Positions 1 to 64,000 of a DNA stretch of 64,000 nt are shown here, in pieces; positions within the stretch are counted from its first letter, which is position 1; the number at the start of each line of letters is the position of its first letter. The stretch comes from Candidatus Falkowbacteria bacterium RIFOXYA2_FULL_47_19 (GTDB lineage: Bacteria > Patescibacteriota > Patescibacteriia > Patescibacteriales > UBA12075), in contig MFGB01000022.1 of the NCBI GenBank assembly GCA_001780275.1, positions 1,249-65,248 of the forward strand. Direction: 5' to 3'. The translations under genes and the position numbers were made by a program. The notes under the pieces are model-generated. The model saw only the letters and a program-made list of their open reading frames with translations. It was not told the DNA's origin and searched no databases.

Positions 1-3000
1 TGCGCCGCCGTATAATTAACCGTATAAGTCGTATTATTTATTTTCGTTAAAGCGCCGGTGGAACTCGTGGCCCAGTTAATAGAAGAAGTATCCAAGGAAT
101 AAATATCCGCATCAGCCGAAACCGTAATCGTGGCCGTGAGCGTGTCGCCGATGCCGTATAGCAGATCCGGTGCGGTCATGGACGTGATCGCCGGCGCATT
201 AGCGTCTATGGAGCCACTCGCGAAATTACTGCTTGAAGTTGCGCTTTTGTTGCCGTAAAGATCGACTAAGGAAATAGAATAAGGTATTGTTCCGGTCGCC
301 CGGTCGGTCTGTCCCGGCGCTACCGTATAATCCACGGTAAAAGTCGTATTATCGGCTTTCAATATATTCGTGACCGCTCCCCCGTTAATCGTTGAACCAG
401 GCCCGATGTTTAGATTGCCCGCCTCGCTCGCGACGGTCATAGTCGCGCGCAGGGTGTCGCCGATCGCATACATCAGGTTAGCGGTAATAATCCCGGAAAT
501 AGACGGCGCCGTATTATCAATCGTCAGCGTCGTGGTCGCTAAAGGCGTTTGGTCGGCCGTAAAATCGTTAGCGGTCAGGCGCAAACAATAAGTTTCGCCG
601 TTAGCCGCGGGCAGATCCGTATCGGACGACCAATCCACGTTGACGGTATTAAGACCGGAATTCGTCAGGATATGCGCGTATGGATCGGGTGCCAGGTACC
701 TGACAATAACTATACCCGAACCTCCGGCGCCGCCGGTACTGACCGAGCCTCCGCCTCCGCCACCCGTGCCGTCGGTACCGGCCGTGCCGACGCCCGTGGA
801 ACTCCCCGCGCCGCCGCCGCCCTGCCCGCCTGAACCGGCGGTATATCCGGAAGACGCGCCACCGCCGCCCCCTCCTCCGAACCAGCCGGCCGGCGAACCG
901 CCGACGCTTGCGAATTGTGAATATTCCCTGCCGTCGCCGCCGTTTCCGCCGCCGGTAACTAGGCCGTCCTGGCCGACCGCTCCCGCGCCGCCGCCGCCGC
1001 CGTTCCTTCCCGGAGCCACGCCGCCACCATCATAAGAAGCTCCGCCGACGTTACCGTAACCACCGGAAGCGGATCCGGGCTGATTACCCGCTCCGCCCGC
1101 TTCTCCTGAATAACCCGAGCCGCCGCCGCCGGAACCGCCGGCCGTGCCGGCGGTCGCGTGCGGTCCCGCGCCGCCGCCGCCTAAAGCCGTCAAAGTATCA
1201 AATACCGTATTGCCACCCGGGCCACCGACCGTGGCCGTCGTGCCCGGGGTTCCGCCCGCGCCGACCGTGATAGCGTATGATCCAGCGGTAACGGCATAAG
1301 CGTCGTCATAAACGATCCCGCCGGAGCCGCCGCCGCCGCGGCCCGCGGTTCCACCCGTTCCGCCGGCGGCGCCGCCGCCGACAATGAGTACCTCTACATC
1401 GCCCGAACCTGATTCTACCGCGAAAGTTCCGTCGCCCATGAAAGTATGGACTATATATCCCCCCTCTTCCGTGATCGTGCCGCCGGTCGCCGTAATCCCG
1501 CCAGTCGGAATATCGCCGATCTGGTACGGACTGGAATTATAAACGGTCGGATCCCCGTAAGTAGCGGTGATATTGGCGTCCGTTTCGTCAATGGTCGGAT
1601 CGTGCGAAAAAAAGTCGGAACAATCGGTGGAGGTCGCCCACTCTAATTTCGCCCGGGAGGGATCCCAGTCGTTATCCGTAATTTCTACCGAGATATCAAC
1701 GATACCCGAACCGTCCGTTCTCTGCTCTACCGAATCAAAACTTCCCGTGGGCGGGGTTTTAAGCTCCATGGAAAATGCCACCAGATTATGAGTGGTTATA
1801 CTTGGCGCCCCCGCAACGTCCACGGTTTCCCGCATTTCCGCGGTAATCGTGTGGTCGCTCTGCGACAATGACCCGAGATAAAAATTATGATGAACGTTTT
1901 CATCGTCAACCCCGTTCGGCAATTCCCGCCTAAGATCCGGAAAACCGTTCGGAACGGACGAACCGTCAACCGTCAACCGACTCTGGATCACTTTCGTATT
2001 TTCCGCCACATCAGCCACTTCCTGCGACCATATTAAATGATCGCCGGCAGTTTTGGCCGTAAATGATGTAGTCGTAGCCGGATACCAGGTGTTTTGGACA
2101 GCTAAAGACACTGGATCGGTTGAATAGCCAACATAATGACTCTGGAATTTATTTAAATTAATAGCGAAAATCGCCGAATAGTCCCAATCATGGGAAGCCG
2201 CCGTCGCGACGCCGGCTTCAACGCGCCAGGTTTTCGTGCCCGCGATATTGGCGCCGGTCATAAGCACGATCGGCCGATAATCAAGCGTGTCTTCACCTTC
2301 ATAACGCACCTGGTTATAAGCGACGCTGTCGGTAGTATTGTTGAGACGCATCATAAAATCATTGGTCTCGGTAGCGTCTATCAGAAAATGCCCCATCCCA
2401 AGCATCATCCAGTCATTACCTCCCCCATCAATCGTTATACTTGAACCGGCACTCCAATTCGGATTCAGGGGTAAATTGCCGGAATGTGTGCTCGTGGCAT
2501 AATACCAATCGGTATTTTCCACCAGATCGTCAGAAAGATTAATGACAAAAGCCTGATAACCGGTAGCGTAGTATGTCAGGGCAGTGGCGCTGGTCACCTG
2601 CACGTTTATATCCTCGCCGGCCACGGCGGTCCAGACCGTAAAAAACTGGTATCCATGTCCGGTATAGGTCGCTAAGGTCCTTCTTGATTCCCAGCGATGG
2701 ATAGAGTCCGCGAATACCGTAGCGCCATGCAAAACCTGCGCCATGGCATTGCCGTTCGCGTTTGAATTATTAAGGCTGAAATTAATGGATATCAGATACT
2801 TTTTCCCGGCCGTAAAAGTAGTGGAAGCTATCTGATATCCGGCGATCGGAGCCCAAACTCCGGCTCCCAGCGCGCCGGAATAAGCGGTATTATCATTTTT
2901 ATAATAGTGCCCGATCGCGCCCGGATTGTCGGAAGCGATTTGCCAGTGGCGATTTTCCCAGCCCAAGGCTGATCCGCCTTGGGCGGAGATTGCTGTTAAC

Positions 3001-4130
3001 GGACCTAATAAATAAAACTCGGGAGATATGTCGGGAGCGTCGAAAGTATATTCCATGATCATTTCGTCGCCGGCCTTTAAATTGACATCTGAAAATATTA
3101 ATCGCTGTTCATCGTCAGAATTTCCAATTTCCAATTTCCAATTTCCAATTTCCTGATTATCAGCATCCCTTAACTCAGGGTCGATGATCCGAAAATTAAT
3201 TGGCACTATTTCGATTAAATTACCCTCATAATCTTCGTTAGCCTTAACATTAATCTTCATCTTATACTCCGCCTTCGGATTGATCCGGGTCGGGCCTTCG
3301 CGCCTGACAATAAACGGCAGTTCTTTTTTCACTTCTATTTTATCCGTAATCGTCCGCTGGCCGTTGACCGTGTCGGCAATAACCGTAATATTATAAACTC
3401 CGGTATCTTCAAGTTCATAATTAGCGTAATAATCCGGCGTATCAATAATATTATTAAGTCCGCAGGCCGGATTACGGGTAATCGTACCGTCCGCGGTGGA
3501 TAAAACCATCTTGCCCCAGCCCGGCTCGTCTATCTCTATAGTTAAGTCGGCGGTGCAGATCGTATCGCCCTCGTCGTCCAGAACGGCCGCCTGAAGATAG
3601 GCGGTGTCTCCCGGTAAATATAAAGATTGGTCCGGATTGAAAGCCAAAACTCCCCAGAGAAAATCCTGGGTAAAAACTATTTCTTCGCCGCCTGTCATAA
3701 CCGCATCCTTGACCGCAATCCTGACCGTGTGTTTTCCCGGCTTCATCGTTCTTCCGGTTCCGCTCAATTTAACCGAAAATTTCCCGTTCTTATTATAAAT
3801 GACCTCCGGAGTTAAACCGCTCTCCGGTGCGTCAGCCAGCTCGGCCTTGATCTCCGTATTCTTATATTCATCAACTATAACTCCCTTAAAAAACGCGCCT
3901 ACGCCTCCCCAAATACCTCGCTGTTTTTTAAACCTGAATTCCATTTCCGGCGTTTCGTTCACGGCAAAATCGGTTTGTTCGGATTGCAAACTCAGCTCAA
4001 AACCGTCTTTAATATGAATATTTTCGTCGCCGGCCAGAACTTGCCCTGTTCCGAAAAAAACAAAAAACATCGCTGTTGTTAACAGTGTCCATGTTTTTAT
4101 CTGTCTGAATTTTTTGTTTTGGATTTGCAT
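1..4130 (-). CDS. Giant secreted surface protein, N-terminal 1376 codons (3' end lies beyond the left edge); paralog of 5292..12131; contains a glycine-rich domain
   Basis: Absent from the supplied track because it has no stop codon inside the window. My own translation of the minus strand from the ATG at 4130-4128 stays open to position 1: MQIQNKKFRQIKTWTLLTTAMFFVFFGTGQVLAGDENIH... (signal/TM). Blocks FLWGVLAFNPDQSLYLPGDTAYLQAAVLDDEGDTIC, YTFDAPDISPEFYLLGPL and ENRHWQIASD align with the 2279-aa ORF. A Gly-rich stretch (about 695-1390) ends in GGAGGSGIVIVRY. Confidence 0.85.
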   Translation of the reverse strand, partial: MQIQNKKFRQIKTWTLLTTAMFFVFFGTGQVLAGDENIHIKDGFELSLQSEQTDFAVNETPEMEFRFKKQRGIWGGVGAFFKGVIVDEYKNTEIKAELADAPESGLTPEVIYNKNGKFSVKLSGTGRTMKPGKHTVRIAVKDAVMTGGEEIVFTQDFLWGVLAFNPDQSLYLPGDTAYLQAAVLDDEGDTICTADLTIEIDEPGWGKMVLSTADGTITRNPACGLNNIIDTPDYYANYELEDTGVYNITVIADTVNGQRTITDKIEVKKELPFIVRREGPTRINPKAEYKMKINVKANEDYEGNLIEIVPINFRIIDPELRDADNQEIGNWKLEIGNSDDEQRLIFSDVNLKAGDEMIMEYTFDAPDISPEFYLLGPLTAISAQGGSALGWENRHWQIASDNPGAIGHYYKNDNTAYSGALGAGVWAPIAGYQIASTTFTAGKKYLISINFSLNNSNANGNAMAQVLHGATVFADSIHRWESRRTLATYTGHGYQFFTVWTAVAGEDINVQVTSATALTYYATGYQAFVINLSDDLVENTDWYYATSTHSGNLPLNPNWSAGSSITIDGGGNDWMMLGMGHFLIDATETNDFMMRLNNTTDSVAYNQVRYEGEDTLDYRPIVLMTGANIAGTKTWRVEAGVATAASHDWDYSAIFAINLNKFQSHYVGYSTDPVSLAVQNTWYPATTTSFTAKTAGDHLIWSQEVADVAENTKVIQSRLTVDGSSVPNGFPDLRRELPNGVDDENVHHNFYLGSLSQSDHTITAEMRETVDVAGAPSITTHNLVAFSMELKTPPTGSFDSVEQRTDGSGIVDISVEITDNDWDPSRAKLEWATSTDCSDFFSHDPTIDETDANITATYGDPTVYNSSPYQIGDIPTGGITATGGTITEEGGYIVHTFMGDGTFAVESGSGDVEVLIVGGGAAGGTGGTAGRGGGGSGGIVYDDAYAVTAGSYAITVGAGGTPGTTATVGGPGGNTVFDTLTALGGGGAGPHATAGTAGGSGGGGSGYSGEAGGAGNQPGSASGGYGNVGGASYDGGGVAPGRNGGGGGAGAVGQDGLVTGGGNGGDGREYSQFASVGGSPAGWFGGGGGGGASSGYTAGSGGQGGGGAGSSTGVGTAGTDGTGGGGGGSVSTGGAGGSGIVIVRYLAPDPYAHILTNSGLNTVNVDWSSDTDLPAANGETYCLRLTANDFTADQTPLATTTLTIDNTAPSISGIITANLMYAIGDTLRATMTVASEAGNLNIGPGSTINGGAVTNILKADNTTFTVDYTVAPGQTDRATGTIPYSISLVDLYGNKSATSSSNFASGSIDANAPAITSMTAPDLLYGIGDTLTATITVSADADIYSLDTSSINWATSSTGALTKINNTTYTVNYTAA
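2961..2984. repeat. Intragenic palindrome GCCCAAGG-N8-CCTTGGGC
   Basis: 8-bp perfect arms read directly from the sequence. It encodes part of ISAQGGSALGW, just N-terminal of the conserved ENRHWQIASD block. Confidence 0.8.
3119..3153. repeat. Heptamer tandem repeat (AATTTCC)x5 inside the giant ORF
   Basis: Five exact 7-nt units. On the coding strand this is (GGAAATT)n, translated as QEIGNWKLEIGN. Confidence 0.95.
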
Positions 4131-4136
4131 TTGACT

Positions 4137-4172
4137 AAGCCACTCGGTGGCTCTAAGGCCACCGAGTGGCTT
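4137..4172. repeat. REP-like 36-nt palindrome, copy 1 (also the likely terminator of the transposase gene)
   Basis: AAGCCACTCGGTGG-CTCTAAGG-CCACCGAGTGGCTT. It lies between the stop of 4181..4885 and the start of the giant ORF, and shares the 5' flank ACTAAGCC with copy 2. Confidence 0.8.
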
Positions 4173-4180
4173 TATTAGCT

Positions 4181-4885
4181 TTATTCCAACGAATATTTTT
4201 TCAACTCCTCTTTAATCTGTCTAGAATTCTTAATCGTTTCGTTTGCGTATTTCCGATAATCGCCAACGCTATCAAACTCTTTTAAAATAATTTTTTTATC
4301 ACACAAGGCCCCTGCTCGCTTGCCCAAATAATCCGGGTAACTCGACCACTGATAACTTTCCGCTTTAGCGATCCCGTGTATCTCCGCGTTGCCGTTAATA
4401 TAGGCCGAAGCGTACGATAATTGCCAGTCGGAGCTAACAGCGACGGATTTGAATTTTCCCTGAAATAAACAGCCGGAGCGTTTGAATTTTTTATTAAAAT
4501 ATTGAGAATATCCCATCATCAGCTTATGCATATACTTTGATATTCCATTATCAACTTTTTGCTCTAAAAGAAAATGGTAATGATTTGGATTTAAACAATA
4601 AGCGATCAATCTAACTAAGCCACCCGGTGGCTCCGAAGCCACCGGGTGGCTTTCCCTTGCTTTTTCAAAAGCAAACAAACTTCCGATATTCTGTTTACGA
4701 TTAAACTCCCTCATGCTCCTTAAAAACCGCACATAATCCTTTTCATCGCCGAAAATCTCCCGCTTGTCCACGCCGCGATTATAGATATGATAATATTCCC
4801 CTGTCTCAAATTTTACTTTACGCATTTTCTTAAAACCAGATTCGGCCATCCGGCAGTTCTGCAGCGAACCGCCGGATGGCTCCAT
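4181..4885 (-). CDS. RayT/IS200-like Y1 (HUH) transposase family protein
   Basis: YYHIYNRG; HUH motif NPNHYHFLL; GCLFQGKFKS; Tyr region SAYINGNAEIHG; YQWSSY. This is the pattern I recognise from COG1943-type REP-associated tyrosine transposases. The more likely start is the M at 4825 (MRKVKFETGEYYHIY). Confidence 0.75.
   Translation of the reverse strand: MEPSGGSLQNCRMAESGFKKMRKVKFETGEYYHIYNRGVDKREIFGDEKDYVRFLRSMREFNRKQNIGSLFAFEKARESHPVASEPPGGLVRLIAYCLNPNHYHFLLEQKVDNGISKYMHKLMMGYSQYFNKKFKRSGCLFQGKFKSVAVSSDWQLSYASAYINGNAEIHGIAKAESYQWSSYPDYLGKRAGALCDKKIILKEFDSVGDYRKYANETIKNSRQIKEELKKYSLE
4617..4652. repeat. REP-like 36-nt palindrome, copy 2, in frame inside the transposase ORF
   Basis: AAGCCACCCGGTGGCT-CCGA-AGCCACCGGGTGGCTT. 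It differs from copy 1 by a compensatory pair (T..A versus C..G) and encodes SHPVASEPPGGL, upstream of the HUH motif. Confidence 0.85.
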
Positions 4886-4922: not shown

Positions 4923-5052
4923 GTGTCATTCTGAACGGATCCGCCAACGGGCGGAGGAGTGAAGAATCCCGCGATCGTCGCGCCGTTCCGTTGTTATTCA
5001 GGACGTTGCCATGCCCCCGGGATTCTTCGGCCTCGGGGCCTCAGAATGACAC
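4923..5052. repeat. MITE-like nested palindrome (130 bp)
   Basis: Terminal inverted repeats GTGTCATTCTGA (4923-4934) / TCAGAATGACAC (5041-5052). Inner inverted repeat GAAGAATCCC (4961-4970) / GGGATTCTTC (5019-5028). Confidence 0.7.
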
Positions 5053-5153: not shown

Positions 5154-5213
5154 GGAGAGGCAAATTTAAAATTTCAAATTACCAAAAAATTCTCCATACA
5201 TTTTATACCCGTA

Positions 5214-5241
5214 GCGCAATATCCAATATCTAATATCCAAT
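5214..5241. repeat. 7-nt-phased repeat GCGCAATATCCAATATCTAATATCCAAT (copy 1 of 2)
   Basis: 28 nt identical to 60633-60660. Heptamers CAATATC/CAATATC/TAATATC/CAAT. Intergenic, just 3' of the giant ORF stop. Confidence 0.95.
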
Positions 5242-5291
5242 TTCTGTTTTAAAATTTATTGATCACTGTTTATTGAGCCTACGCCCATAAC

Positions 5292-8200
5292 TTATTCACC
5301 ACCATCGTCGTTGCGCCATCTATAATGCACTTGCTCAACATAAGGAAACCGCACCTGGAAAATATCCGCGTAAGTATCGGAGTCAAAGCGCCCGCTGTCA
5401 TTGCCGCTTATTACCTCTACCGTATAATTCGTAGCGGTCAACGCGAAGGTCTTGTTGAATAAAATTTTAAAATCCAAGGTGCAGGTCGTACCGGCGCAGT
5501 TAGAGTCGCTATTAACCGACAGCTCGGCCGAGTCTAAGGCGTCGGTGCCGATCTCATAAAAAGCATCAGCCGTCTGGTCCCAATAGAATACGAGGTCGCT
5601 AAAAGGCGAAGCGCTGTCTAAATTATCGGCGAGCCGCAAAGTCGTGGAAGCGAGCGCCTGGTAGCCGTTCGTTTCCGACACCACCACCCGGAAATTCCAC
5701 TCCGTGGACGTGCCGGCAATAGCAATATTGCCCGCTTCCGGATTGGTAAAAGTAAGCGCGTCATTACTGACTGTGCTATTTGTCTTTATTGATATCTCGG
5801 ATGAAGTCGCTTTATTGCCGAAAGCGTCGTAAGACCAGATATTAAAATAATACCAGGTATCGGAATCGAGACCGGATACGGTCGTGGAAGAAACGTCGTT
5901 ATAATTATAACTATCTAAGGCCGCGTCGTCATGCTCTAAATTATCACCGACGACGTAATCCACCACCCCGGCCGCGCCTTTTTTGTAAAATATCTTATAC
6001 GCGTTCGTCGCCGGCTCGTTCGTATCGGTCGCGGGCGAGGCCGTATCAAAAATAAGTTTAATGCTATTAATAGTTACCTCGCCCTGAGTTAAAATTCCCG
6101 GCGCGGTCGGATCATAGTTGTCTATTATAAGTGTCACGGTCGTGGCGACGAGCTGATCATCCAGGCCGTCATTCACGGTGAGCCTTAAACAATGCGTGCT
6201 TGACGCGTACGGCTCGTCGGTCTTACCAAACCAATCAAAAGTAATTGTATTAGATCCGGGCGAAGTCAGTATCCAGTGGTCGGAGCTGCTTGTACCTACT
6301 TGATAAGGGTAATTATTATCAATCTCCGCCAGGCCAAAATCACGAGTAACACTCGTCGGGTCTAAAGTCGGGTCAAGTGATTCCGTAAAATCACAGGCCG
6401 CGCCTTCAGCGTACTCTATTTTCGCCCGGCAGGTATCGTCATTATTAGCGTCATCCACTTCAATGGAAATATCCACGATTCCGGAGCCGTCCGTCCTCTG
6501 TCCGATGTTAGCGAGGTTGAACCCACCCAAGGGCGCGTCATTAGTCATAATGTCCACGCGGGTTGAGCTCGCCCGGTTGCCGTTCTCGTCATAAGCCCAG
6601 ATCGCGAAACTGTATGTCGTCTTCGGGGAAAGATTGCCGATCGAAGTGGTTGCGGCAGAAAGAAAAAACTTGTCGCCCAGACTGGGATCACTGGAAGAAC
6701 TGAACACGCTGTCCGCTTCAGTCGGATCTGTGCCGTCGTAAAGCTGATAAAAAATCTTATATTCAACGAAGTTGGTTTCGGTTGTGGTCGCGCCGAAAGC
6801 GAGGGTCGTGGTCGCCCCGGTCCGCGCCGATAAACTTAAAGCCCCGGGCGCGGTCGGATTTTTCGTGTCTATGTAAACGGTCGTCGTGGCCGGAGTCTCC
6901 TGATCTAAATTAAGATCGTTAGCCGTTATCTGAAGACAATAATCTCCCTCCACCGCCCCCAAGCTTTCGCGCGCAGACCAGTCAAAAAATACCGAATTGG
7001 ACCCTGAGGCGGTCACGATATAACCGTCAACCGTGCCGATCTGGTAGGTCTCGCTATTATCAATATACGGGTCGCCCCAGTCGGCCGTAATATTCCCGTC
7101 CGTTTCGTCCAAAACCGGATTGCCGGTGGTAAAAACGCAGGCCGTGCCGGTCGCGAATTCTATCTTGACGCGCAGGTCATGATCGTCCGGATCGTCAACT
7201 TCCAAACCGATATCAACCGTGCCGCTCATATCGGTTTTTTGCGTGGTAGAAGCCGTAATAAACGAACCGGTCGGCGGGCTATTCGTCCAGCCGTAAGTAT
7301 AAATAAGCTGGCCGTTCAGCTTAGCGCCGTCCGTTGCCGTCAATGTAGTATCGTCGGAATAACAAGCGTTATAAGACTGATTATCGGTCGTGTTCAATGA
7401 TGCCGTTACATCTTTATAAAACTCGGAAAAACTGTTAAAATCATCCGGCTCTAATCGGTAATTATTAGTGCAGGTCGGATTTCCGACAGACAAATTTGCG
7501 TCAACATAGTATACTGTACCGGCTGGCACATCCTTGGTGGAATAACTGTTCAAAAAACTTGCCAATAAACCGCCCGCCATGATCTGCTTGCCTGTCGTCT
7601 CCGGCATTACCGATCTCGCCGTCATTGTGGTGGTGCCGGTGATCGGCGACTCCGAAGACTGGCCGCCGAACAAATTAATGCTCGTTAAATAACCGCCCGA
7701 CTCATCTGTGTAAGTATATGTTATCATAAGCTCGGCCGATATTCCTCCGAACGTCGTGGTATTGAAGGTGGTATTAATTTTTACTTCTTTGGCGGTATTG
7801 GCATTAGCGCTTTCTAGTTCGGCATAATCGCTTGCCGGAATTATATGGATAATGTTGTAAGACGGTTTTATGACCGCGCCGTCGCCATTATAAGCATACA
7901 CTAGATTGGGGGTGGTGGTGGCGTTATCTCCGACCTTAGAAGACACGGACACGCTTAAGGCGGCCGTATTCGGATTTTGCGCGATTATCCTGAACCAGGC
8001 GCTCTTGACGCTTACTATGCCCGTACTGGCTCCATTTTCCGGAAAATACACGTTAGTTGAAGCGCTGGAAAGCGAAAGAGTGGCGCCGTTATTTATCACC
8101 CCGATCGGAAAAGAGACGGTTTTGGTTTTTATTGGCGCCGCGGAAGAAGCGATATAGGTTTCCGTCACTTCGCCGCCAAGAGAATAAAAGGTGCCGATAT

Positions 8201-11200
8201 TAAAAAAGTATTCCAACTGTTGCGCGGAATTCTCCGCGTACCCGGAGTTCGCCCAATCCGGATAGTACATCGCCGGCATATTCCCCTGCGCGCTATTTGC
8301 CTCTTCCCAGTGGAAACTGGGGCTGTCTTGGTCGTAATTCTGGATATTAATATTGGGTCTGGCGTCAGTTGTTGTTATGGCGTCATTATTGGCATACATC
8401 GTAAACCACTGCGCCAGCCGGTTTGTCGTAGTGGCCGTCCCAGACCATTCCGGAATTTCCATATTATAATCAAAGACCGGACAGGTGTTGTTCCTGGCGC
8501 AACTGGTATAAACTATGCTCGCCTGTCTGGTGCCGCGATCAGTACCGTTGGTAGAGTCCAGAGGATATATTACCGTATTGGTAATATTCTCCGAATCAGG
8601 ATCGTAAGTATAGGTCAAAATCAAAATCGCGCCAGCGTTAGCGATTGCCATCTTTGTGTTTGTGTTTTTCAGGTGGTAACCGACCTGAGCTTCCATTTCC
8701 GTTCCGCCGCCGGTATAGGCGGCTAATTGCGCCTCGTCTGTTATATCTAAAAGCAATCTGACGAAATTGCTTTCGCCGTTACCTGTGCCGGCGTCATCAT
8801 AAGAAAGAATGTTGGAATTATTTTCCAAAATAGCGCCCGTGCCGCTAAACGGATTTAAAGAACATCCGCCGGTTTCACAGGTGTCAAAACCAAGCCTGTA
8901 TCCGGTATAATCCGTATCGCTGATCACGGTATAAGCTTCGTATTGGGATTCAAAAATAATATACGCGTTTTTTATATCAACGCCCGTTTCCGCGAGTTTG
9001 AATTTAAAACTGGAAAAAGTATAATCCTGGTTCGTGTTTTGTCCGGTATTACCTCCGGCGGAATCATCGTTCCATGTTCCCGCCTGGAACATAACCGTCC
9101 GCGCCCGCTTGCGGACCGCGTCCGAAGCGATCTGCCAGCGGCGATTCTCAGAAGCTGAGCTTCCAATTGGAAGCTCAGCTTCTTTTAACGCCAGAGGCCC
9201 AACCAAATACAATTCCGGCGACCGGTCCGGCGCGTCGAACGTATAGCTTATTTCCAGCTCATCACCCGCGAAAATTTCCACATCCTGCCAAACCAATTTT
9301 TTCACCCCATCCTCTTCTATTTCGTAATACTTGTAGTTCGCACCGTACGGATCACGTCCGTCCGTATTCGACATTCGAAAATCGACATTCGAAATTTTGA
9401 ATCCCGTCGGCACAGATTCAACAATATCCCCCTTAAAATCTTCTCCCGGCTTAACAACAATCCTAAACCCATAGTCCGCCTTCGGCCAAATTCTGGTCGG
9501 GCCCAGGCGCTCTATATCGAACAAACGCTCCTCGGCGACGACTATCGTCTCTCTTATCTCTTTCTCTCCTGTCCGCATCGTAAATTCGTACTCGCCCGCC
9601 TCGCTGAAAACATAACGAACGTAATAATCCGGCTCGCTCGTCACCGTTTCCGGCCCGCACTGTTCGCTTAATTTTATGCCGCCGTTTTCGACCGTCAGCG
9701 TCTCGTCAATTCGTAATTCGTAATTCGTAATTCGTAATTCGGCGGCCGCGCCGCAAACCGTATGTCCGGATTCATCCAAAACTGCCATCTGGATATAAGC
9801 TTCTTCACTCGGGACATACATAGATTTATTAAAATTCATGGCCAGAACCCCCCAGGAAAAATCCTGCATTAACTCGAATTCTTCCACTTCCTCGCCGGAC
9901 CGGTCCGTGATATAGAACTTAACCGAATATTTTCCCGGTTTAAGTTTATCCGAAATTTCCGGCAATTTGATCGTAAATTCCCCGCCCTCGTCAAAGATCA
10001 AGGTCAAAGGATAATCGACTGCCGCGCCCGAGCTGTCGACTAGTACGGCCCGGATATCGACGTTTCTCCAGAAGTCTCCGAGGCCGATCATCTCGCCTAA
10101 AGTGTCCCAGATCCGATTCTCGTTCTTTTTGTATTTAAATATCATCTCCCCCTCTTCGTTAACACTGAAAGTTAATTGATCAGAAAGCAGGGTCAAAGCC
10201 TCTTCCCAGCGTTTTCTCTTCTCTAGCATATCAAGCTCGTCTTCGCTCTCGTATTCCGCCTCCACCCAGACGCTGTCCAAATAAGCAATAAATTCTATCT
10301 CTTCGTTAACCACGCCCTCGAATTTCAATTTTAAATTGCGGACATCGTCCCAATTCTCCAAAAAATCAGCTTTGTAACCGAAATAGCCATTATTAACGGC
10401 ATTCGACAAATTATCAGCAGTTAAAATATCTAATTGCTGCCAAATTTGATTGTCTTCCCCCGCTTCATCCTCTGTGGTGCTGGCGTTATCAAGCGAATAC
10501 CAGATAATAATCTTCGCGTTCTCCCGCAAAAATCCATTTTCCGCTAAAGCAGTTTTAGGCGCTGCTAAAATCCGATACAGATCAAAAAGCGTCAGCGGTT
10601 CAACACCGGTCTCATCCATAACCGGATCTTCATCTTCGTCATTTGTAATTCGTAATTCGTCATTCGTTATTAATTCGTCTTCGTCTTCTGTTATCTCTAT
10701 GGTTGGAGCGTTTTCCTCTGCCGGAGAAATATCGCCGCCGAAATTCGTAATTAGTAATTCGTTATTTTTACCCGCCGACTTGTCCGCCGACGCTTCATCC
10801 GTAGCCGGTTCTTCGTTTTCGTTATTCGACATTCGAAAATCGCCATTCGAAATTCCCATCTCCGGCACCAAAAACCCGTCATTAAGATCTATCACCTCCA
10901 CCACGCCTTCATCCGTCAAAACCTCGGAGTTTACCGGCGTTTCTTCCGGCGTTTCCCCACCGCTAGCATCTACTTCGTTATTACTCTCAATTTCTTCTTC
11001 ATCGGCCACGGCCCCCTCAGAAGATTCGCCGTCTTCGTCATTCGTCATTCGAAAATCGCCATTCGAAATTCCCGCTCTCCCTCCGGCCAGAGAAAATTTT
11101 ATCTTAGCGCCCGTGAATTTTCCTAAGTCTTCCAGGGTATCGATATTCTCGTTCGTTACCTCGTCGGCCAGAACCTCGCCGGCGTAAACTGCCGGAGTGC

Positions 11201-12131
11201 TTAAGAATTTTTTTGCCTCTCCGAACCAGGACACTTCTTCCATCTCAAGTTCCGCGTCAATGCCAATTTCAGTTTCGGCGGTTTCGGCGGAAGGCTCGTC
11301 AACCGCGCCGGTTTCCGGTTCCGTTGCGTTTACGCTCTCTTCCGATATAACATCGATCTCATCTTCCGTTTCGCCATTGCCGTCGTTTTCCGTTTCCGTC
11401 ACATCCACCGTACCGGCCCCATCCGTCCCGCTCTCATCAATAATTTCTACAACAGCCTCATCGGCAACCGTGTTCGCGCCATCATCATCGCCGTCCGATT
11501 CTTCCGGCGCCGTCTCGGGATTATTTTCGATTATTTCCGTAATTATATCTTCAACGCTTTCTTCCCGCTCTGAACTCGCATCTTCATCCATAATAACTCC
11601 GTTCTCCTCATAATTTCCGTTTTCTTTTTCATCTTCAGGCGCCAACGTATCCTGATCATCGCCAGATTCATCTATTTGAGCCTCCGGAGCCGGCTCGCTC
11701 TTTATGAACATGAACTCTCCGCAAACCAAACTATAATTCCCGCCAGAATAAAAAGCCGAATTAGTGTCGTTAAAAGCTAAAGCATCTTCCTCCGGCCCGG
11801 CCTCGGGCTCGCCTTGGGCTTTGTCCGCGTTCCACCATCCTTCCCTATAATTTTCCGATATAAATCCGGGCGCGCACTCGCCCGCGTACAGATCGATGGT
11901 CTTAGTATTATTATTTAAGGCCCGGGTCATGTTCCGGAAAATATTCCAGGGAGAAATTCCCGTGAGCAAACAGGCTAAAACCAATGCCCCGAAAACAAAA
12001 CGCCAGCCCCTCGGGATACACTTAAGTATCTTATATGGGCTGGCAATACCGAAGGAATCCGATTCCTTCGCAAGGAATCGAATTCCTTGTCTTTTGATAA
12101 AATTAAAATATTTTCTATTTTTAGCAAGCAT
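5292..12131 (-). CDS. Giant surface protein (2279 aa): TM anchor, acidic low-complexity region, FN3-like repeats
   Basis: ORF track. N-terminal TM FVFGALVLACLLTG; a D/E-rich region of about 450 aa; a central part paralogous to 1..4130; C-terminal FN3-like units (PTAPGALSLSARTGATTTLAFG..YKIFYQ; PTAPGILTQGEVTINSIKLIF..YKIFYK). Confidence 0.9.
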   Translation of the reverse strand: MLAKNRKYFNFIKRQGIRFLAKESDSFGIASPYKILKCIPRGWRFVFGALVLACLLTGISPWNIFRNMTRALNNNTKTIDLYAGECAPGFISENYREGWWNADKAQGEPEAGPEEDALAFNDTNSAFYSGGNYSLVCGEFMFIKSEPAPEAQIDESGDDQDTLAPEDEKENGNYEENGVIMDEDASSEREESVEDIITEIIENNPETAPEESDGDDDGANTVADEAVVEIIDESGTDGAGTVDVTETENDGNGETEDEIDVISEESVNATEPETGAVDEPSAETAETEIGIDAELEMEEVSWFGEAKKFLSTPAVYAGEVLADEVTNENIDTLEDLGKFTGAKIKFSLAGGRAGISNGDFRMTNDEDGESSEGAVADEEEIESNNEVDASGGETPEETPVNSEVLTDEGVVEVIDLNDGFLVPEMGISNGDFRMSNNENEEPATDEASADKSAGKNNELLITNFGGDISPAEENAPTIEITEDEDELITNDELRITNDEDEDPVMDETGVEPLTLFDLYRILAAPKTALAENGFLRENAKIIIWYSLDNASTTEDEAGEDNQIWQQLDILTADNLSNAVNNGYFGYKADFLENWDDVRNLKLKFEGVVNEEIEFIAYLDSVWVEAEYESEDELDMLEKRKRWEEALTLLSDQLTFSVNEEGEMIFKYKKNENRIWDTLGEMIGLGDFWRNVDIRAVLVDSSGAAVDYPLTLIFDEGGEFTIKLPEISDKLKPGKYSVKFYITDRSGEEVEEFELMQDFSWGVLAMNFNKSMYVPSEEAYIQMAVLDESGHTVCGAAAELRITNYELRIDETLTVENGGIKLSEQCGPETVTSEPDYYVRYVFSEAGEYEFTMRTGEKEIRETIVVAEERLFDIERLGPTRIWPKADYGFRIVVKPGEDFKGDIVESVPTGFKISNVDFRMSNTDGRDPYGANYKYYEIEEDGVKKLVWQDVEIFAGDELEISYTFDAPDRSPELYLVGPLALKEAELPIGSSASENRRWQIASDAVRKRARTVMFQAGTWNDDSAGGNTGQNTNQDYTFSSFKFKLAETGVDIKNAYIIFESQYEAYTVISDTDYTGYRLGFDTCETGGCSLNPFSGTGAILENNSNILSYDDAGTGNGESNFVRLLLDITDEAQLAAYTGGGTEMEAQVGYHLKNTNTKMAIANAGAILILTYTYDPDSENITNTVIYPLDSTNGTDRGTRQASIVYTSCARNNTCPVFDYNMEIPEWSGTATTTNRLAQWFTMYANNDAITTTDARPNINIQNYDQDSPSFHWEEANSAQGNMPAMYYPDWANSGYAENSAQQLEYFFNIGTFYSLGGEVTETYIASSAAPIKTKTVSFPIGVINNGATLSLSSASTNVYFPENGASTGIVSVKSAWFRIIAQNPNTAALSVSVSSKVGDNATTTPNLVYAYNGDGAVIKPSYNIIHIIPASDYAELESANANTAKEVKINTTFNTTTFGGISAELMITYTYTDESGGYLTSINLFGGQSSESPITGTTTMTARSVMPETTGKQIMAGGLLASFLNSYSTKDVPAGTVYYVDANLSVGNPTCTNNYRLEPDDFNSFSEFYKDVTASLNTTDNQSYNACYSDDTTLTATDGAKLNGQLIYTYGWTNSPPTGSFITASTTQKTDMSGTVDIGLEVDDPDDHDLRVKIEFATGTACVFTTGNPVLDETDGNITADWGDPYIDNSETYQIGTVDGYIVTASGSNSVFFDWSARESLGAVEGDYCLQITANDLNLDQETPATTTVYIDTKNPTAPGALSLSARTGATTTLAFGATTTETNFVEYKIFYQLYDGTDPTEADSVFSSSSDPSLGDKFFLSAATTSIGNLSPKTTYSFAIWAYDENGNRASSTRVDIMTNDAPLGGFNLANIGQRTDGSGIVDISIEVDDANNDDTCRAKIEYAEGAACDFTESLDPTLDPTSVTRDFGLAEIDNNYPYQVGTSSSDHWILTSPGSNTITFDWFGKTDEPYASSTHCLRLTVNDGLDDQLVATTVTLIIDNYDPTAPGILTQGEVTINSIKLIFDTASPATDTNEPATNAYKIFYKKGAAGVVDYVVGDNLEHDDAALDSYNYNDVSSTTVSGLDSDTWYYFNIWSYDAFGNKATSSEISIKTNSTVSNDALTFTNPEAGNIAIAGTSTEWNFRVVVSETNGYQALASTTLRLADNLDSASPFSDLVFYWDQTADAFYEIGTDALDSAELSVNSDSNCAGTTCTLDFKILFNKTFALTATNYTVEVISGNDSGRFDSDTYADIFQVRFPYVEQVHYRWRNDDGGE
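9150..9183. repeat. Perfect 34-nt palindrome inside the giant ORF
   Basis: AGAAGCTGAGCTTCCAA|TTGGAAGCTCAGCTTCT, with no mismatch. It encodes EAELPIGSSAS, immediately N-terminal of ENRRWQIASD. Confidence 0.95.
9366..9396. repeat. 7-nt-phased repeat, subfamily A (ATTCGACATTCGAAAATCGACATTCGAAATT)
   Basis: ATTCGA/AATCGA boxes at offsets 1, 8, 15 and 22. Translated as ISNVDFRMSN. Confidence 0.9.
9708..9741. repeat. Heptamer tandem repeat (AATTCGT), about 4.9 units
   Basis: Exact 7-nt units at 9708, 9715, 9722, 9729 and 9736. Translated as ELRITNYELRI. Confidence 0.95.
10639..10679. repeat. Degenerate heptamer repeat (ATTTGT/ATTCGT boxes)
   Basis: Boxes are 7 nt apart at 10641, 10648, 10655 and 10662. 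Translated as ELITNDELRITNDE. Confidence 0.8.
10742..10766. repeat. Heptamer repeat AATTCGT/AATTAGT/AATTCGT
   Basis: Three 7-nt units. Translated as NELLITNF. Confidence 0.85.
10824..10854. repeat. 7-nt-phased repeat, subfamily A
   Basis: ATTCGACATTCGAAAATCGCCATTCGAAATT. Translated as ISNGDFRMSN. It has 1 mismatch to 9366-9396. Confidence 0.9.
11040..11070. repeat. 7-nt-phased repeat, subfamily A
   Basis: ATTCGTCATTCGAAAATCGCCATTCGAAATT. Translated as ISNGDFRMTN. Confidence 0.9.
12051..12089. repeat. Twin 19-nt palindromes in the 5' coding region of the giant ORF
   Basis: GAAGGAAT-CCG-ATTCCTTC, then CAAGGAAT-CGA-ATTCCTTG (20-nt offset). Translated as LAKESDSFGI. Confidence 0.85.
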
Positions 12132-34427: not shown

Positions 34428-37400
34428 ATGCCAAACCTTGAACAAAATTGGAATAGAGCGGAAATTAACAAAGTAGCCGGACAAGAAATGCTCGAGGGAG
34501 AGGAGGAGTATCGCCGGGAGGAATCAGGCAGGAAAGAATTTGGAAATAGGTATTGGAACGATGAAGATGTAGATTTAATGTACGGGAATGATCGAGACTT
34601 TGAGTCTGGATATGAAATGCATGAAATGATTTATGATAGAGAAATGCAAACGCTTGATGATTGCCTTAATCGCGGAAATTTTGACGGAGCGGAGCATATA
34701 CTGAAACATTATAAGGATGTTGAAAATATTATTTCAGTTCTAAAAAATGTTATTGTTAATTACGTATTTGTCTCTAAAGATCAGTATGAGTCATTTATTG
34801 CCGGACTAAGTGATTTTTTGAACCAGAACAAAATTTCAAAAAAGAAAAAATTGAATTTTTCCATAGCTAAATTCTTAAATTCTCCCGAGTTAGAAGAGCT
34901 TATTTGCGATCGGTGGAATGAGGATTATTACGATGATAGTGGAAATGATGATTATTATGATGATAATGAAAATGAGAACGCCACAATTGCGTCCGTCATA
35001 AAAAATCTAAATATTCCGGCGGCAAAAAAAGAAAAAATCGCCCTGAAAGTTGTAAAAGAGCAATTGATCAAAGGCAATATTCCCTACACCCGCAAATTAA
35101 AGGAAGATTTTCCAGTCCATTCTAAAGACTTTGATTTTAATGAAGTAGAAGATGCGGCCTTAAAAGGTTTAATAAACTTTTTGTCGGAAAATAATTTAAG
35201 AAGTATTGATAGAATAATAAAGTATTCTATAATATCCCCGGAAAAACTCGCGTCCCCGGATGTCATACAAGCCGCACTAACAGGCCTAATCAACTGTTTG
35301 TCGGCGGGCTATATTGATTGCGCCATCAATATTAAAGATTATTTCGCCCTACCACCGGAAAAATTAGAACAGGCCGCAGAAAACTGCCTCACGAAACACT
35401 TGCTAAATAATAATATTTATTATGCCATCGAAATTAAAGATAATTTCATTATTTCGCCGGAAAAACTTGCCTCCCCGGAAATAGAACAAGCTATTCTAAA
35501 CAACCTGGTTAAAAATTTATTAGAAGGCAATATTGATACTGCTATTAAAATTAAAGACAGTTTCGCCATTTCTGCGGAAAAACTCGCCACCCCGGAACTT
35601 GAACAAGCCGCGCTAAGCGGCCTAATTAAATGTTTGTCCGAAGGCTACGTTGATACCGCCATTAAGATAAAAAATAATTTCACTATTTCGCCGGAAAAAT
35701 TAGAACAAGCCGCGCTAAGCGGCCTAATCGACGATTTATCAAGGGGCTATATTGATCGTGCCTTTAAAATTAAAGACAGTTTCGCCATTTCCGCGGAAAA
35801 ACTCGCCACCCCGGAACTTGAACAAGCCGCGCTAAGCGGCCTAATTAAATGTTTGTCCGAAGGCCACATTAATAACGCCATTGAGATAAAAAATGATTTC
35901 ACAATTTCTCCGGAAAAACTGGAACAAGCGGCCCTTACCGGTCTAGCTCGCCAATTGTCAAAAGGCAATATTGAGACTGTCATGAGCATTAAAAATAATT
36001 TCTTGATTTCACCGGAAAAACTTGCCACCCCCGGGATTGAGAAAGCCGCTCTGCAGGCCATAATCAGTCAATTACTAGAAGGCTATATTAATGACGCCAT
36101 TAAAATTAAAGACAATTTCACAATTTCTCCGGAAAAACTAGAACAAGCCGCTATAACCTTCCTATGTGACCATTTATCAAAGGGCCATATTGATTATGCT
36201 ATTAAAATTAAAGACAATTTCACTATTTCGCCGGAAAAAATCCAGGAAGCTGACCAACCTGCTCTAAGCGCCATAATCAATGAATTACAAAAAAGCTGCG
36301 TTAGCAACGCTATTAAGATCAAGGATAAATTTAAAATTTCGCCGGAAAAACTCGCCACCCCGAAGGTTGAAAAAGCCGCTCTGCAAGACCTCACTGCTCA
36401 ATTATTGGCCGGCTATATTAAAGACGCCATCCATATTAAAAACAATTTCCCAGTTTCTCCGGAAAAACTAGAACAAGCCGCTTTGACCGGTTTAATCAAG
36501 CAATTGTCAAAAGGCCGCATTAGCGATGCTAGCACGATTAAAGACAATTTCCCTGTTTCGCCGGAAAAACTCGACTCCCCGGAAGTGGAACGAGCCGCTT
36601 TGACCGGTTTGATCAGTGAATTATCAAATGACCATGTTGATCGTGCCGTTAAAATAAAAAACTGTTTTCCAATTTCGCCGGAAAAACTAGATCTAGCCGC
36701 CATAGCCGAAATAACCAACAAATTATCAACTGGGCATATTGATTATGCCATCCAGATCAAAGATAATTTTATGATTTCGCCGAAAAAAATCGCCACCCCG
36801 GAAATTGAACAAGCGGCATTAACCGGCCTTATCAGACAATTGTCAAATGGTTATATTGAACACGCCGTCAGGTATAAAAATAATTTCACCATCGCGCCGG
36901 AAAATCTGGAGCAAACCGCTTTAACAAGTTTAATTGGTCATTTATCAAATGGAAAACTTGGATATGCCATTGACATTAAAAAAGATTTTACCCTTTCGCC
37001 GGAAAAACTCGCCTCCCCGGAAGTTGAACAAGCGGCTTTAACCAGCCTGGCTGACTGTTTGAGGGATGGACAAATTGAAAATGCTTTTAAAATAAGTGAA
37101 AATTTTCCTATTTCGCCGGAAAAACTGGAACAAGCCGCTCTAGCCGGCTTTAAACACCAATTATCCATTAACCGTATTACAAATGCCTTTTTGATTAAAA
37201 AAAATTTCACCATAGCGCCGGAAAAGATAGAACAGGCCGCTCTAGCCGGGCTAATAAACGGTTTGTCGGAAGGCGATACTTTTAACACAAGCAAAATTAA
37301 AGACAGCTTTACCATAGCGCCGGAAAAACTCGCCTCCCCGGAAGTTGAACAAGCCGCTCTAGCCGGCTTAACCAAGAGTTTACAGGAATGCCGTGTTAAT

Positions 37401-60566: not shown

Positions 60567-60632
60567 AATAACGTATATTGGATATTAAATATCAGCTAGC
60601 TGAAATATTTTGCGCGGAAAATTACATCCGTT

Positions 60633-60660
60633 GCGCAATATCCAATATCTAATATCCAAT
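60633..60660. repeat. 7-nt-phased repeat GCGCAATATCCAATATCTAATATCCAAT (copy 2 of 2)
   Basis: Identical to 5214-5241. It overlaps the last codons and the stop (60649-60651) of the GH1 gene. Confidence 0.95.

Positions 60661-63519: not shown

Positions 63520-64000
<481 letters not shown>

Follow-up and report, generated by a model that had tools for sequence, protein, structure and literature searches.

In-frame heptanucleotide tracts in a giant surface-protein gene and an O-antigen ligase gene of a Falkowbacteria genome: probable in-place turnover of a widespread class of microsatellites

Introduction

How can nearly the same short DNA sequence come to lie within the reading frames of two unrelated genes? 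The question is raised by a 64,000-nt stretch of contig MFGB01000022.1 (assembly GCA_001780275.1, positions 1,249 to 65,248 of the forward strand) of Candidatus Falkowbacteria bacterium RIFOXYA2_FULL_47_19, here called the window, in which a repeat of 31 nt occurs three times in the gene of a giant surface protein and, as a variant, once in the gene of an O-antigen ligase family membrane protein. An earlier note on this DNA had interpreted the four copies as one DNA element placed into different coding contexts, by insertion or by templated copying. The copies are instead heptanucleotide simple sequence repeats (SSRs), a known repeat class that is now seen in Patescibacteria, or Candidate Phyla Radiation (CPR). 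Period-7 tracts of this class are very numerous in Patescibacteria and many other bacteria. Probably, the four copies are short compound microsatellites that slippage renews where they stand and that genes tolerate in frame if the site is permissive.

The tandem heptanucleotides of cyanobacteria, first seen in Calothrix/Tolypothrix PCC 7601, are called STRR. In the account of Mrazek et al. (2007) that is relayed in PMC4679880 and PMC4692102, heptanucleotides outnumber every other class of long SSRs in most prokaryotic genomes, and the cause proposed in this relayed account is that the ~7 nt in contact with the polymerase favor slippage. Specific cases include the tandem heptanucleotides of Calothrix PCC 7601, GGGAATC in Xanthomonas, and GGGGAYT in Nostoc (PMC4692102), as well as the TAACTGA repeats of marine Beggiatoaceae, cyanobacteria, and Bacteroidetes, which include in-frame copies in a stop-free orientation at protein peripheries (PMC4679880). 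Exact-string and topic searches of the literature found no paper linking CPR/Patescibacteria to SSRs or to the peptides described below.

Results

The Four Copies Are Compound Heptanucleotide Tracts

The degenerate 31-mer ATTCGWCATTCGAAAATCGMCATTCGAAATT matches the plus strand of the window at 9366-9396, 10824-10854, and 11040-11070 without mismatches, and it was absent from each of 100 dinucleotide-preserving shuffles (0 expected). The repeat reported in the earlier note is thereby borne out, as is its variant copy, ATTCGACATTCGACATTCGTAAATT, at 58679-58703. All four copies lie in uninterrupted minus-strand open reading frames (ORFs), three of them in an ORF of 2279 aa and one in an ORF of 512 aa:

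5292..12131, minus strand: host gene 1, encoding a surface protein of 2279 aa that has fn3 domains, Ig-like/MG-like β-sandwich domains in tandem, and an acidic region at its N-terminus
57813..59351, minus strand: host gene 2, a 512-aa O-antigen ligase family membrane protein (Wzy_C, Pfam PF04932, E = 1.2e-16)
9366..9396, minus strand: copy 1, a compound heptamer tract (ATTCGAC ATTCGAA AATCGAC ATTCGAA ATT) encoding KISNVDFRMSN, identified by exact match and by Tandem Repeats Finder (TRF)
10824..10854, minus strand: copy 2, a compound heptamer tract whose peptide, GISNGDFRMSN, falls in the N-terminal part of the giant protein, which is acidic and of low complexity
11040..11070, minus strand: copy 3, a compound heptamer tract encoding GISNGDFRMTN, extended upstream to ~11030 by CGTCATT units
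58672..58703, minus strand: ligase copy (TTTCGAT ATTCGAC ATTCGAC ATTCGTA AATT), encoding GNLRMSNVEYRK in a loop between hydrophobic segments

Each copy was resolved by TRF as a tandem array of period 7 with four to five heptanucleotide units, the period of 14 being the compound form, and an independent lag-7 scan agreed on period 7. The unit of the four copies on the coding strand is NNCGAAT, equivalently GAATNNC. Their period-7 self-match amounts to 72-79%, i.e., the arrays are imperfect and ~4 units long. The 3' context, correctly described in the earlier note, is AAATTCCC in three cases and AAATTTTGAATCC in one. In an alignment of the four copies with their flanks, the surroundings proved unrelated beyond one additional degenerate unit, GGGAATT. 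The description of the copies as "always in frame" holds insofar as the ORFs are intact at all four of them. Relative to the repeat phase, the ligase copy (GNLRMSNVEYRK) is read in a different frame than the copies of the giant gene (GISNGDFRMSN), and the phrase therefore amounts to ORF intactness only.

The structure model of the giant protein resembles integrin-leg, complement MG, S-layer Sap, and adhesin folds. For the ligase, 1588 homologues were found, and the named ones are of the Patescibacteria group (Falkowbacteria, Parcubacteria, Berkelbacteria).

Orthologues Carry Same-Length Sequence or Other Units at the Tract Sites

The orthologue comparison covered the ligase tracts, copy 1 of the giant gene at 9366, and a further tract of the same gene:

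9703..9741, minus strand: near-perfect ATTCGTA x5.4 tract (TRF, 96% matches), encoding ELRITNYELRI

Only the minus orientation of this tract is stop-free, as the plus strand reads TAA. The closest orthologue of the giant gene is 48% identical, and the acidic region with the copies at 10824 and 11040 is unalignable. At 9366, the peptide KISNVDFRMSN has a gap-free counterpart, VVNQELRIMN, in orthologue P0121 (48% identical), and the DNA of P0121 there also has a period of 7 and AAT in the same phase (G TGAATCA GGAATTA AGAATTA TGAATCA A). At 9703, ELRITNYELRI aligns gap-free to LELRITNQELGI (LELRITNQELGIE) in P0126 and to LELRIKNQELGI (LELRIKNQELGIE) in P0125, and other homologues exhibit ordinary strand-turn sequences there. 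In an AlphaFold model of the giant protein, built on 12 sequences only and reaching pLDDT values of 80-94 over residues 110-400, both segments are predicted as β-strand or β-hairpin of an Ig-like domain (pLDDT 76-94). KISNVDFRMS is a predicted β-strand of such a domain (model residues 335-344), and ELRITN / YELR / IDETLT would form a strand-turn-strand arrangement, i.e., a β-hairpin (pLDDT 93-94). Given the gap-free alignments and the predicted strand and hairpin, the tracts at 9366 and 9703 occupy ancestral coding positions and are not added DNA. The finding that the segments are ancestral coding sequence in orthologues contradicts, at these two sites, the view that they were inserted. The tract-bearing ORFs are intact at the tract in the window, the syntenic relative L001, P0121, and P0126.

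The ligase tract recurs in L001 (88% aa identity) at the identical place and with the identical length, but with different units throughout: TTACGAA TGTCGAA TGTCGAA TATCGAA in the window vs. TTCCGAT CTTCGAT CTTCGAT TTTCGAT in L001. Every unit has changed in concert, between flanks that are ~90-98% identical (upstream flank, ~98%). Among 55 orthologues, 16 carry a period-7 tract in this ligase loop, with many different units (TTCGAAT, AATACAA, AGATACA, AATTTTC, GAATTAC, AATTTCA, AAATCTC, AAAATCA, AATTTCC), and the shortest loops are the tract-free ones (52-58 aa in total). The outgroup orthologue P0003, too, has units of the CGAAT type in this loop. Two more ligase loops behave alike. Further orthologous tract pairs include some that are conserved with point changes and others that are wholly replaced; for example, L026 and L042 hold (AATTACG)n of 42 nt and (AAATCAG)n of 39 nt, respectively, between flanks of 92.6% identity. 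Between relatives, the place and often the length of a tract are thus kept while all units change together, and sometimes another unit takes over. No insertion boundaries could be defined by these comparisons, as orthologues showed either sequence of the same length or an orthologous tract with another unit.

The heptamer-holding ligase loops also carry in-frame, GC-rich palindromic inserts in other lineages (P0010, L032, L046, L058, L036, L059). These inserts lie at sites homologous to ~58670-58710 of the window and in the C-terminal loop (peptide VILRPKAEESRDSKLNQ..SFASLRFAQDD; DNA GTCATTGCGAGG...CAATCTC). In L061, compared with L006 at 6283, a palindromic insert is located inside an AATTAAG tract.

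Period 7 Dominates a Large and Widespread Tract Population

Tract periods were surveyed in 82 sequences (1.13 Mb in all), namely the window, L001, and 80 orthologous ligase loci taken, with flanks of 10 kb, from different genomes of Patescibacteria. Arrays of at least three perfect copies numbered 49 at period 7, compared with four at period 5, five at period 6, and none at period 8 or at periods 9-11. Among imperfect tracts, period 7 accounted for 228, and periods 5, 6, and 8 for 108, 38, and 18, respectively (periods 9, 10, and 11: two, three, and none). A long tail of tract lengths exists at period 7 only, and the median tract comprises ~4 units. The units are varied and A/T-rich, with dozens of different ones in use on both strands and without strand preference. 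Tracts are fourfold denser outside genes (56 vs. 14 per 100 kb of non-coding and coding DNA, respectively), and ~60% of them lie in frame within genes, at recurrent loops of orthologues. The intragenic sites are of recurring, permissive kinds, i.e., membrane-protein loops, the disordered acidic region, and surface β-hairpins. Intergenic tracts showed no preference for start-codon-adjacent positions, their placement within spacers being roughly uniform.

Units that are stop-free on both strands occur both ways (on the sense strand, AAATTGG six times and AATTTCC four times), and the opposite orientations encode unrelated peptides, KLEIGNW vs. QFPISNF. Consequently, the tracts originate at the DNA level and not at the peptide level.

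Beyond Patescibacteria, the 20-mer TTCGAAAATCGNCATTCGAA was found in 94 metagenome contigs, in 66 distinct flank contexts of 32-69% GC, and the 31-mer of copy 2 recurs identically in L117, an unrelated metagenome contig of 56% GC. Contigs carrying the 20-mer hold 77 tracts of period 7, six of period 6, and eight of period 8, the excess of period 7 thus extending to non-CPR contigs; no length variants were seen among near-identical metagenome contigs with this 20-mer. A protein search with (ELRITNY)6 returned mostly "hypothetical proteins" of 30-74 aa, which look like spurious ORFs across long intergenic TACGAAT arrays. The named matches are from Nostocales cyanobacteria (Nostoc, Anabaena, Cylindrospermopsis, Tolypothrix PCC 7601), Pseudanabaena, Tannerella, and a CPR genome of WWE3. 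The vocabulary of units is common far beyond this genome, and two unrelated genes can therefore hold similar tracts.

In the window itself, the earlier note had missed at least six additional heptamer tracts, likewise resolved at period 7 by TRF, located in both host genes, a paralogue, and nearby. Apart from the tract at 9703, they include:

10635..10671, minus strand: degenerate heptamer tract of TTCGTAA and TTCGTCA units, encoding ELITNDELRITND
10739..10762, minus strand: short degenerate heptamer tract of ATTCGTA and ATTAGTA, encoding ELLITNF
3117..3155, minus strand: perfect AATTTCC x5 tract encoding EIGNWKLEIGN, in a paralogous surface-protein gene (1..4130, minus strand)
5216..5241, no strand assigned: intergenic CAATATC heptamer tract directly 3' of the giant gene, within a 42-nt dispersed repeat (family D10)
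60635..60664, no strand assigned: CAATATC x4 tract overlapping the stop codon of a GH1 gene (..PDIGY*)

In the paralogue alignment, the tracts at 3117-3155 and 9366 share one variable loop region.

The 42-nt dispersed repeat occurs at 5203-5244 and 60622-60663 with 90% identity and consists of CAATATC heptamers and a common non-repeat part, CCGTWGCGCAATATCC... Both copies sit immediately 3' of minus-strand genes, and at 60636-60663 the repeat makes up the end of the GH1 gene (..PDIGY*), i.e., its last four codons and its stop codon. At a distance of ~30 nt, 60573-60593 holds a partial copy in inverted orientation that could pair with this one. A search of the window against Rfam matched only tRNAs and the start of a 16S rRNA and no other known RNA family.

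Elsewhere in the sample, intergenic tracts are often paired with their own reverse complement at a distance of 20-40 nt, which yields long imperfect hairpins with 7-nt-periodic stems. Such inverted pairs occur in short spacers of co-directional genes (L014 1599-1682, 2004-2098, and 14319-14400; L046 4470-4546; L050 1088-1169; L008 4819-4900; metagenome contigs L154, L167, and L151). In several genomes, tracts of the CATAACN, CGCATAA, and ACATAGC types are located 1-57 nt upstream of the ligase start codon, often across the stop codon of the upstream gene (L002 2821-2853, L007 9975-10002, L010 9820-9851, L025 8144-8173, L032 3341-3371, L059 2057-2087). In three homologous coding sequences from metagenome contigs of ~59% GC (L093, L118, L127), a 34-nt block with ATTCGAAAATCGACATTCGAAAC is 100% conserved between flanks that differ by ~12-15%, third codon positions included, which may reflect chance or a constraint on the tract.

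Discussion

Turnover in Place and the Observations That Weigh Against It

Probable as turnover in place by slippage is, its steps can be outlined as follows. Tracts would arise and be homogenized where they stand, by slipped-strand mispairing or short-range template switching in a 7-nt register, in line with the idea of a polymerase footprint that is credited to Mrazek et al. (2007). Selection would then keep those versions that have no stop codon in any sense-strand frame, a net length divisible by three, and a harmless peptide. The peptides of the tracts have a 7-residue period and alternate between hydrophobic and polar residues, and judging by the structure model they can serve as β-strand or hairpin. 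The likeness between the giant gene and the ligase gene would mean that both draw on a limited common vocabulary of units, A/T-rich and with AATT or TCGAA as their core, and not that transposition took place.

Several observations weigh against this explanation. One-unit slippage (±7 nt) shifts the reading frame, so that the birth and growth of tracts inside essential genes are hard to explain unless several units change at once or a second event compensates, and neither was observed directly. The replacement of whole units at three of seven positions between relatives of 88-92% identity demands a very fast turnover or conversion from elsewhere. In addition, 1.08 Mb of related genomes lack the 13-mer ATTCGACATTCGA, which the ligase copy has in common with copies 1 and 2 of the giant gene (9366 and 10824), and this hints at exchange between loci in this genome; within the window the 13-mer occurs three times, and ATTCGNCATTCG, likewise absent from the related DNA, occurs five times.

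A further difficulty is posed by the AATT core. In the 1.13-Mb sample, unit-to-unit mismatches affect 4.2% of AATT core positions vs. 12.9% of spacer positions, a threefold difference, and AATT itself is ~threefold more frequent than in stop-free shuffles. That a palindromic core recurring every 7 bp should be protected is not predicted by neutral slippage. In the 107 tracts with an AATT consensus unit, the mismatch rates at the four core positions were 3.0%, 2.6%, 3.5%, and 7.6%, compared with 12.8-13.1% in the spacer (p = 1e-17), and the conservation was equal in coding and non-coding tracts. The control anchors TTAA, ATTA, TAAT, AAAA, TTTT, and ATAA showed no contrast between core and spacer.

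Three simpler causes were considered and rejected. Base composition fails to account for the conservation of AATT, given that A/T spacers are as variable as G/C spacers (0.125 vs. 0.137) and the controls were flat. Avoidance of stop codons cannot be the sole cause of the enrichment, since the ~threefold excess persists against shuffles that are themselves stop-free. A mutagenic realignment junction, at which differences between units would be concentrated at a single position, was indicated in only three of 61 tracts at p < 0.05, which is not significant.

Copying Between Tracts of One Genome

Instead, other tracts of the same genome might serve as the main templates, their sequence being written into pre-existing tracts or loops through template switching at replication or short-patch gene conversion; the ligase copy would then derive from the giant-gene copies or the reverse. 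As the main process, such ectopic templated copying is rather unlikely. Within the giant gene, it has a good deal in its favor. The three copies agree with each other at 29-30 of 31 positions although their flanks are unrelated, and only 0.44% of unrelated tract pairs (at least 28 nt, from different genomes) reach 27/28 identity. Because of this agreement, the three copies are, as far as their sequences tell, not independent. The region of the copy at 10824 is 90% identical to 11025-11073 over 49 nt, with unrelated intervening sequence (family D6). Most likely, the three 31-mers were homogenized mutually within 0.2-1.5 kb, whether through template switching, gene conversion, or a local duplication, and to this extent the templated copying suggested in the earlier note can be upheld.

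Beyond these three copies, the suggestion could not be upheld. The replacement of whole units between close relatives is equally compatible with conversion and with slippage, and a one-step replacement would be a simpler route to concerted changes at three of seven positions than repeated mutation and homogenization. The words ATTCGACATTCGA and ATTCGNCATTCG, found three and five times in the window and not in the related DNA, also speak for exchange within this genome. In the 82 sequences, however, tracts of the same genome are no more alike than tracts of different genomes. Units were alike at no more than one mismatch in 12.9% of within-genome pairs lying more than 3 kb apart and in 14.8% of between-genome pairs, and identical in 2.2% and 1.7%, respectively; a genome-specific vocabulary of units, as expected from genome-wide templating, was therefore rejected. 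With respect to the ligase copy, the evidence for exchange with the giant gene is weak, as the match is at the level of units only, spans 13 nt at one end, and needs an indel at the other. Furthermore, CGAAT-type units are present in the outgroup orthologue P0003, and the unit of the window may thus be ancestral.

A Specific Mechanism or Binding Protein

The AATT core invites a bolder reading, which we regard as speculative and unlikely. Here, the tracts would be non-neutral arrays of a palindromic AATT core spaced by 7 bp, with three free bases in between, and Patescibacteria and other heptamer-rich bacteria would possess a specific mechanism that keeps or actively generates them. The mechanism could be a heptad-binding protein (omega/RHH-like for DNA, cold-shock/S1-like for RNA) or a dedicated template-switching process that rewrites whole tracts, and it would at the same time supply proteins of the surface and envelope with hypervariable loops and with β-hairpin modules of 7-residue period.

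The narrower proposal of functional binding arrays, in which a protein would bind cooperatively to AATT cores separated by free 3-bp spacers, has a still smaller chance of being correct. Candidate binders are ribbon-helix-helix (RHH) proteins like omega/ParB of pSM19035 for duplex DNA, and a cold-shock or S1-type domain for RNA; coding copies would then be tolerated or exploited instances. Omega, an RHH ParB protein, binds one 7-bp unit per dimer, its sites consist of 7-10 contiguous heptads in direct or inverted orientation, and at least four are needed (PMC9499535). In agreement with such arrays, the threefold conservation is specific to AATT and holds inside genes as well as outside them, and the absent strand preference fits a core that equals its own reverse complement. 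The median of ~4 units and the direct and inverted pairs of intergenic tracts recall the omega heptads (PMC9499535), and the AAT phase is kept between the 48%-identical orthologues. The known operator/parS arrays of omega may also be similar in their contiguous 7-bp units, direct or inverted, and conserved core. They differ in having one heptad, WATCACW, a few plasmid promoter sites, and a known binder, whereas the tracts described here use many units, genome-wide and within genes. Binding arrays are further disfavored by the dozens of units, only about half of which contain AATT, by the lack of positional preference within intergenic spacers, by the wholesale replacement of tracts between close relatives, and by the presence of the same tract types across unrelated phyla. 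A candidate binding protein was neither identified nor linked to the tracts; none was sought.

Switching, Peptide Selection, Mobility, and Hairpins

It is doubtful that the tracts are contingency loci, in which gain and loss of 7-nt units would switch surface genes and the O-antigen ligase or diversify exposed loops. This possibility is supported by a unit length that is not a multiple of three inside genes for surface and envelope proteins, by the perfect or near-perfect five-unit arrays at 3117-3155 and 9703-9741, and by the hypervariability of the loops between relatives. A change of ±7 nt would fuse three of 64 tract-containing gene junctions into one ORF, compared with four of 617 controls, a test that rests on three cases. 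The four copies themselves, with a self-match of 72-79% and ~4 units, would be poor switches. Moreover, tracts are denser outside genes, and the ORFs compared (window, L001, P0121, P0126) are all intact at the tract. The known switches, i.e., the tetra-, penta-, and heptanucleotide SSRs of Haemophilus and Neisseria (PMC2651432, PMC11868660), are alike in having units that are not multiples of three and in residing in genes related to surface structures or lipopolysaccharide. They are, however, long perfect arrays, in contrast to ~4 imperfect units here, and no ON/OFF alleles were seen among the ORFs compared.

Selection at the protein level for a peptide motif with a function of its own (ISNxDFRMSN or LRITNYE) is very improbable. 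Such selection would account for the single frame and nearly identical peptide of the three giant-gene copies, and for the alternating hydrophobic/polar pattern of peptides that the model places in β-strands or hairpins. The ligase copy, however, is read in another frame and yields a different peptide, both DNA orientations in the same loops give unrelated peptides, and the same units abound in non-coding DNA. A 7-residue peptide repeat has no need of a 7-nt sub-periodicity either, and the concerted nucleotide identity within tracts likewise speaks against selection of the peptide.

The idea of a miniature mobile element inserting in frame, of the kind of a miniature inverted-repeat transposable element (MITE) or a Rickettsia palindromic element (RPE), is hardly credible and was rejected: the same sequence is indeed present in unrelated coding contexts of the window and in 66 unrelated metagenome contexts, a Y1 (IS200/RAYT-like) transposase gene adjoins the giant gene, and genuine in-frame palindromic inserts occupy the same ligase loops in other lineages, but the aligned copies and flanks revealed no terminal inverted repeats, target-site duplication, or conserved target, folding is not above that of shuffles, the boundaries are those of a tandem array of 20 to 41 nt, orthologues offer same-length sequence or an orthologous tract in place of empty sites, and 31 nt is far below known sizes (RPEs, ~150 bp; PMC10969869). 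The palindromes of the Y1 transposase-like gene are quite unlike the heptamer tracts. The claim of one inserted DNA element was thus abandoned, on account of the gap-free orthologues, the missing hallmarks of an element, and the orthologous ligase tract in L001.

The earlier note had also considered each copy hairpin-capable, a notion that finds no support in single-strand DNA folding of the four copies, whose energies (-2.9 to -5.9 kcal/mol) are no better than those of shuffles (z -0.04 to -1.5, not significant). Self-complementarity of units is not enriched across the tract population, and with 31-mers that fold like shuffles, a hairpin reading was dismissed. Among the perfect arrays, the ATTCGTA x5 tract folds better than its own shuffles (z = -4.1) and the AATTTCC x5 tract does not.

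Relation to Known Repeats

The explanation by in-place slippage of microsatellites places the tracts next to the heptanucleotide SSRs of other prokaryotes. Common to both are head-to-tail 7-nt units in short arrays, an excess of period 7 over neighboring periods, a mostly intergenic location, and a length and sequence that vary strongly between close relatives. The link to the cyanobacterial heptanucleotides is direct insofar as ELRITNY-type (TACGAAT) arrays were found in proteins of Nostoc, Anabaena, Cylindrospermopsis, and Tolypothrix PCC 7601. Differences lie in the host group, Patescibacteria/CPR, in the A/T-rich units with an AATT core, and in the ~60% of tracts that are in frame within genes.

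The TAACTGA repeats (MacGregor, 2015; PMC4679880) are likewise direct repeats of a heptamer in two to six copies with a scattered phylogenetic distribution, some of which overlap stop codons or sit in frame, in the stop-free orientation, at the protein periphery. Related CATAACN tracts are located directly upstream of the ligase gene in several of the loci studied here. In contrast to the one dominant TAACTGA unit, which is found mainly upstream of start codons, the tracts described here employ dozens of units without spacer preference and occur within structured regions of proteins. GGGAATC and GGGGAYT of Xanthomonas and Nostoc (Rehm et al., 2015; PMC4692102) resemble them in being heptameric, enriched, intergenic, and occasionally arranged as inverted pairs; those units are G-rich and quadruplex-capable, whereas the A/T-rich tracts cannot form quadruplexes. 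RPEs and in-frame MITEs (PMC10969869) also represent repeated DNA in frame in unrelated genes at fold-compatible positions. However, RPEs are palindromic, ~150 bp long, and grouped in defined families with fixed ends, as opposed to 20-40 nt of tandem 7-mers that have neither palindromic ends nor empty or filled sites.

Implications for Patescibacteria Proteomes

Odd peptides in Patescibacteria proteins such as ELRITNYELRI, KLEIGNWKLEIGN, FRISNFEFRI, and KIQDTRYKIQ can be explained as read-through translations of 7-nt DNA repeats and should not be taken as homology signals or domains, and short "hypothetical proteins" made of such tracts are probably spurious ORF calls. The tracts mark loops in which CPR proteins tolerate arbitrary sequence or diversify. 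They also provide a clean natural data set for the old question why seven is the favored unit of bacterial microsatellites, with one site that can be traced through many lineages. The main interest lies in the scale of the phenomenon in CPR proteomes and in the unexplained constraint on the AATT core, which is position-specific and not predicted by pure slippage. If the tracts did switch or diversify surface proteins of episymbionts, this would bear on host attachment and phage evasion.

Other Features of the Window

The Y1 transposase ORF next to the giant gene (4181..4885, minus strand; IS200/RAYT-like) matches Pfam Y1_Tnp (1.9e-9) and the NCBIfam model of REP-associated tyrosine transposases with 28.7 bits, which is under the cut-off of 80. 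It contains an in-frame, 36-nt double palindrome (AAGCCACCCGGTGGCT CCG AAGCCACCGGGTGGCT), with a near-copy just downstream of the gene (8 matches vs. 0.1 expected), and a long inverted repeat (GTCATTCTGA...TCAGAATGAC) is located just upstream of the ORF. The arrangement, at 4137-4172, 4617-4652, and 4925-5050, looks like a REP/RAYT-type system in a CPR genome.

In the region 54020-54296, the gene for tRNA-Ser(CGA) (54207-54296, minus strand) precedes a tandem array of three copies, 62 nt long and 98% identical, each consisting of a 41-nt GC-rich, hairpin-like spacer and the last 21 nt of tRNA-Ser (CAAATCCCTGTCTCTCCGCCA); a terminator-like hairpin follows the array. The copies may have been left behind when the tRNA 3' end was used repeatedly for integration, or they may be a repeat of this 3' end of an unusual kind.

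An ORF of 1879 aa (34428..40067, plus strand) without an informative Pfam match contains ~20 tandem coding repeats at 35200-37900, with units of 117 or 102 nt (219-nt super-unit) that are 60-93% identical. The 5' part of a bacterial 16S rRNA gene is located at 63522-64000 and runs off the end of the window.

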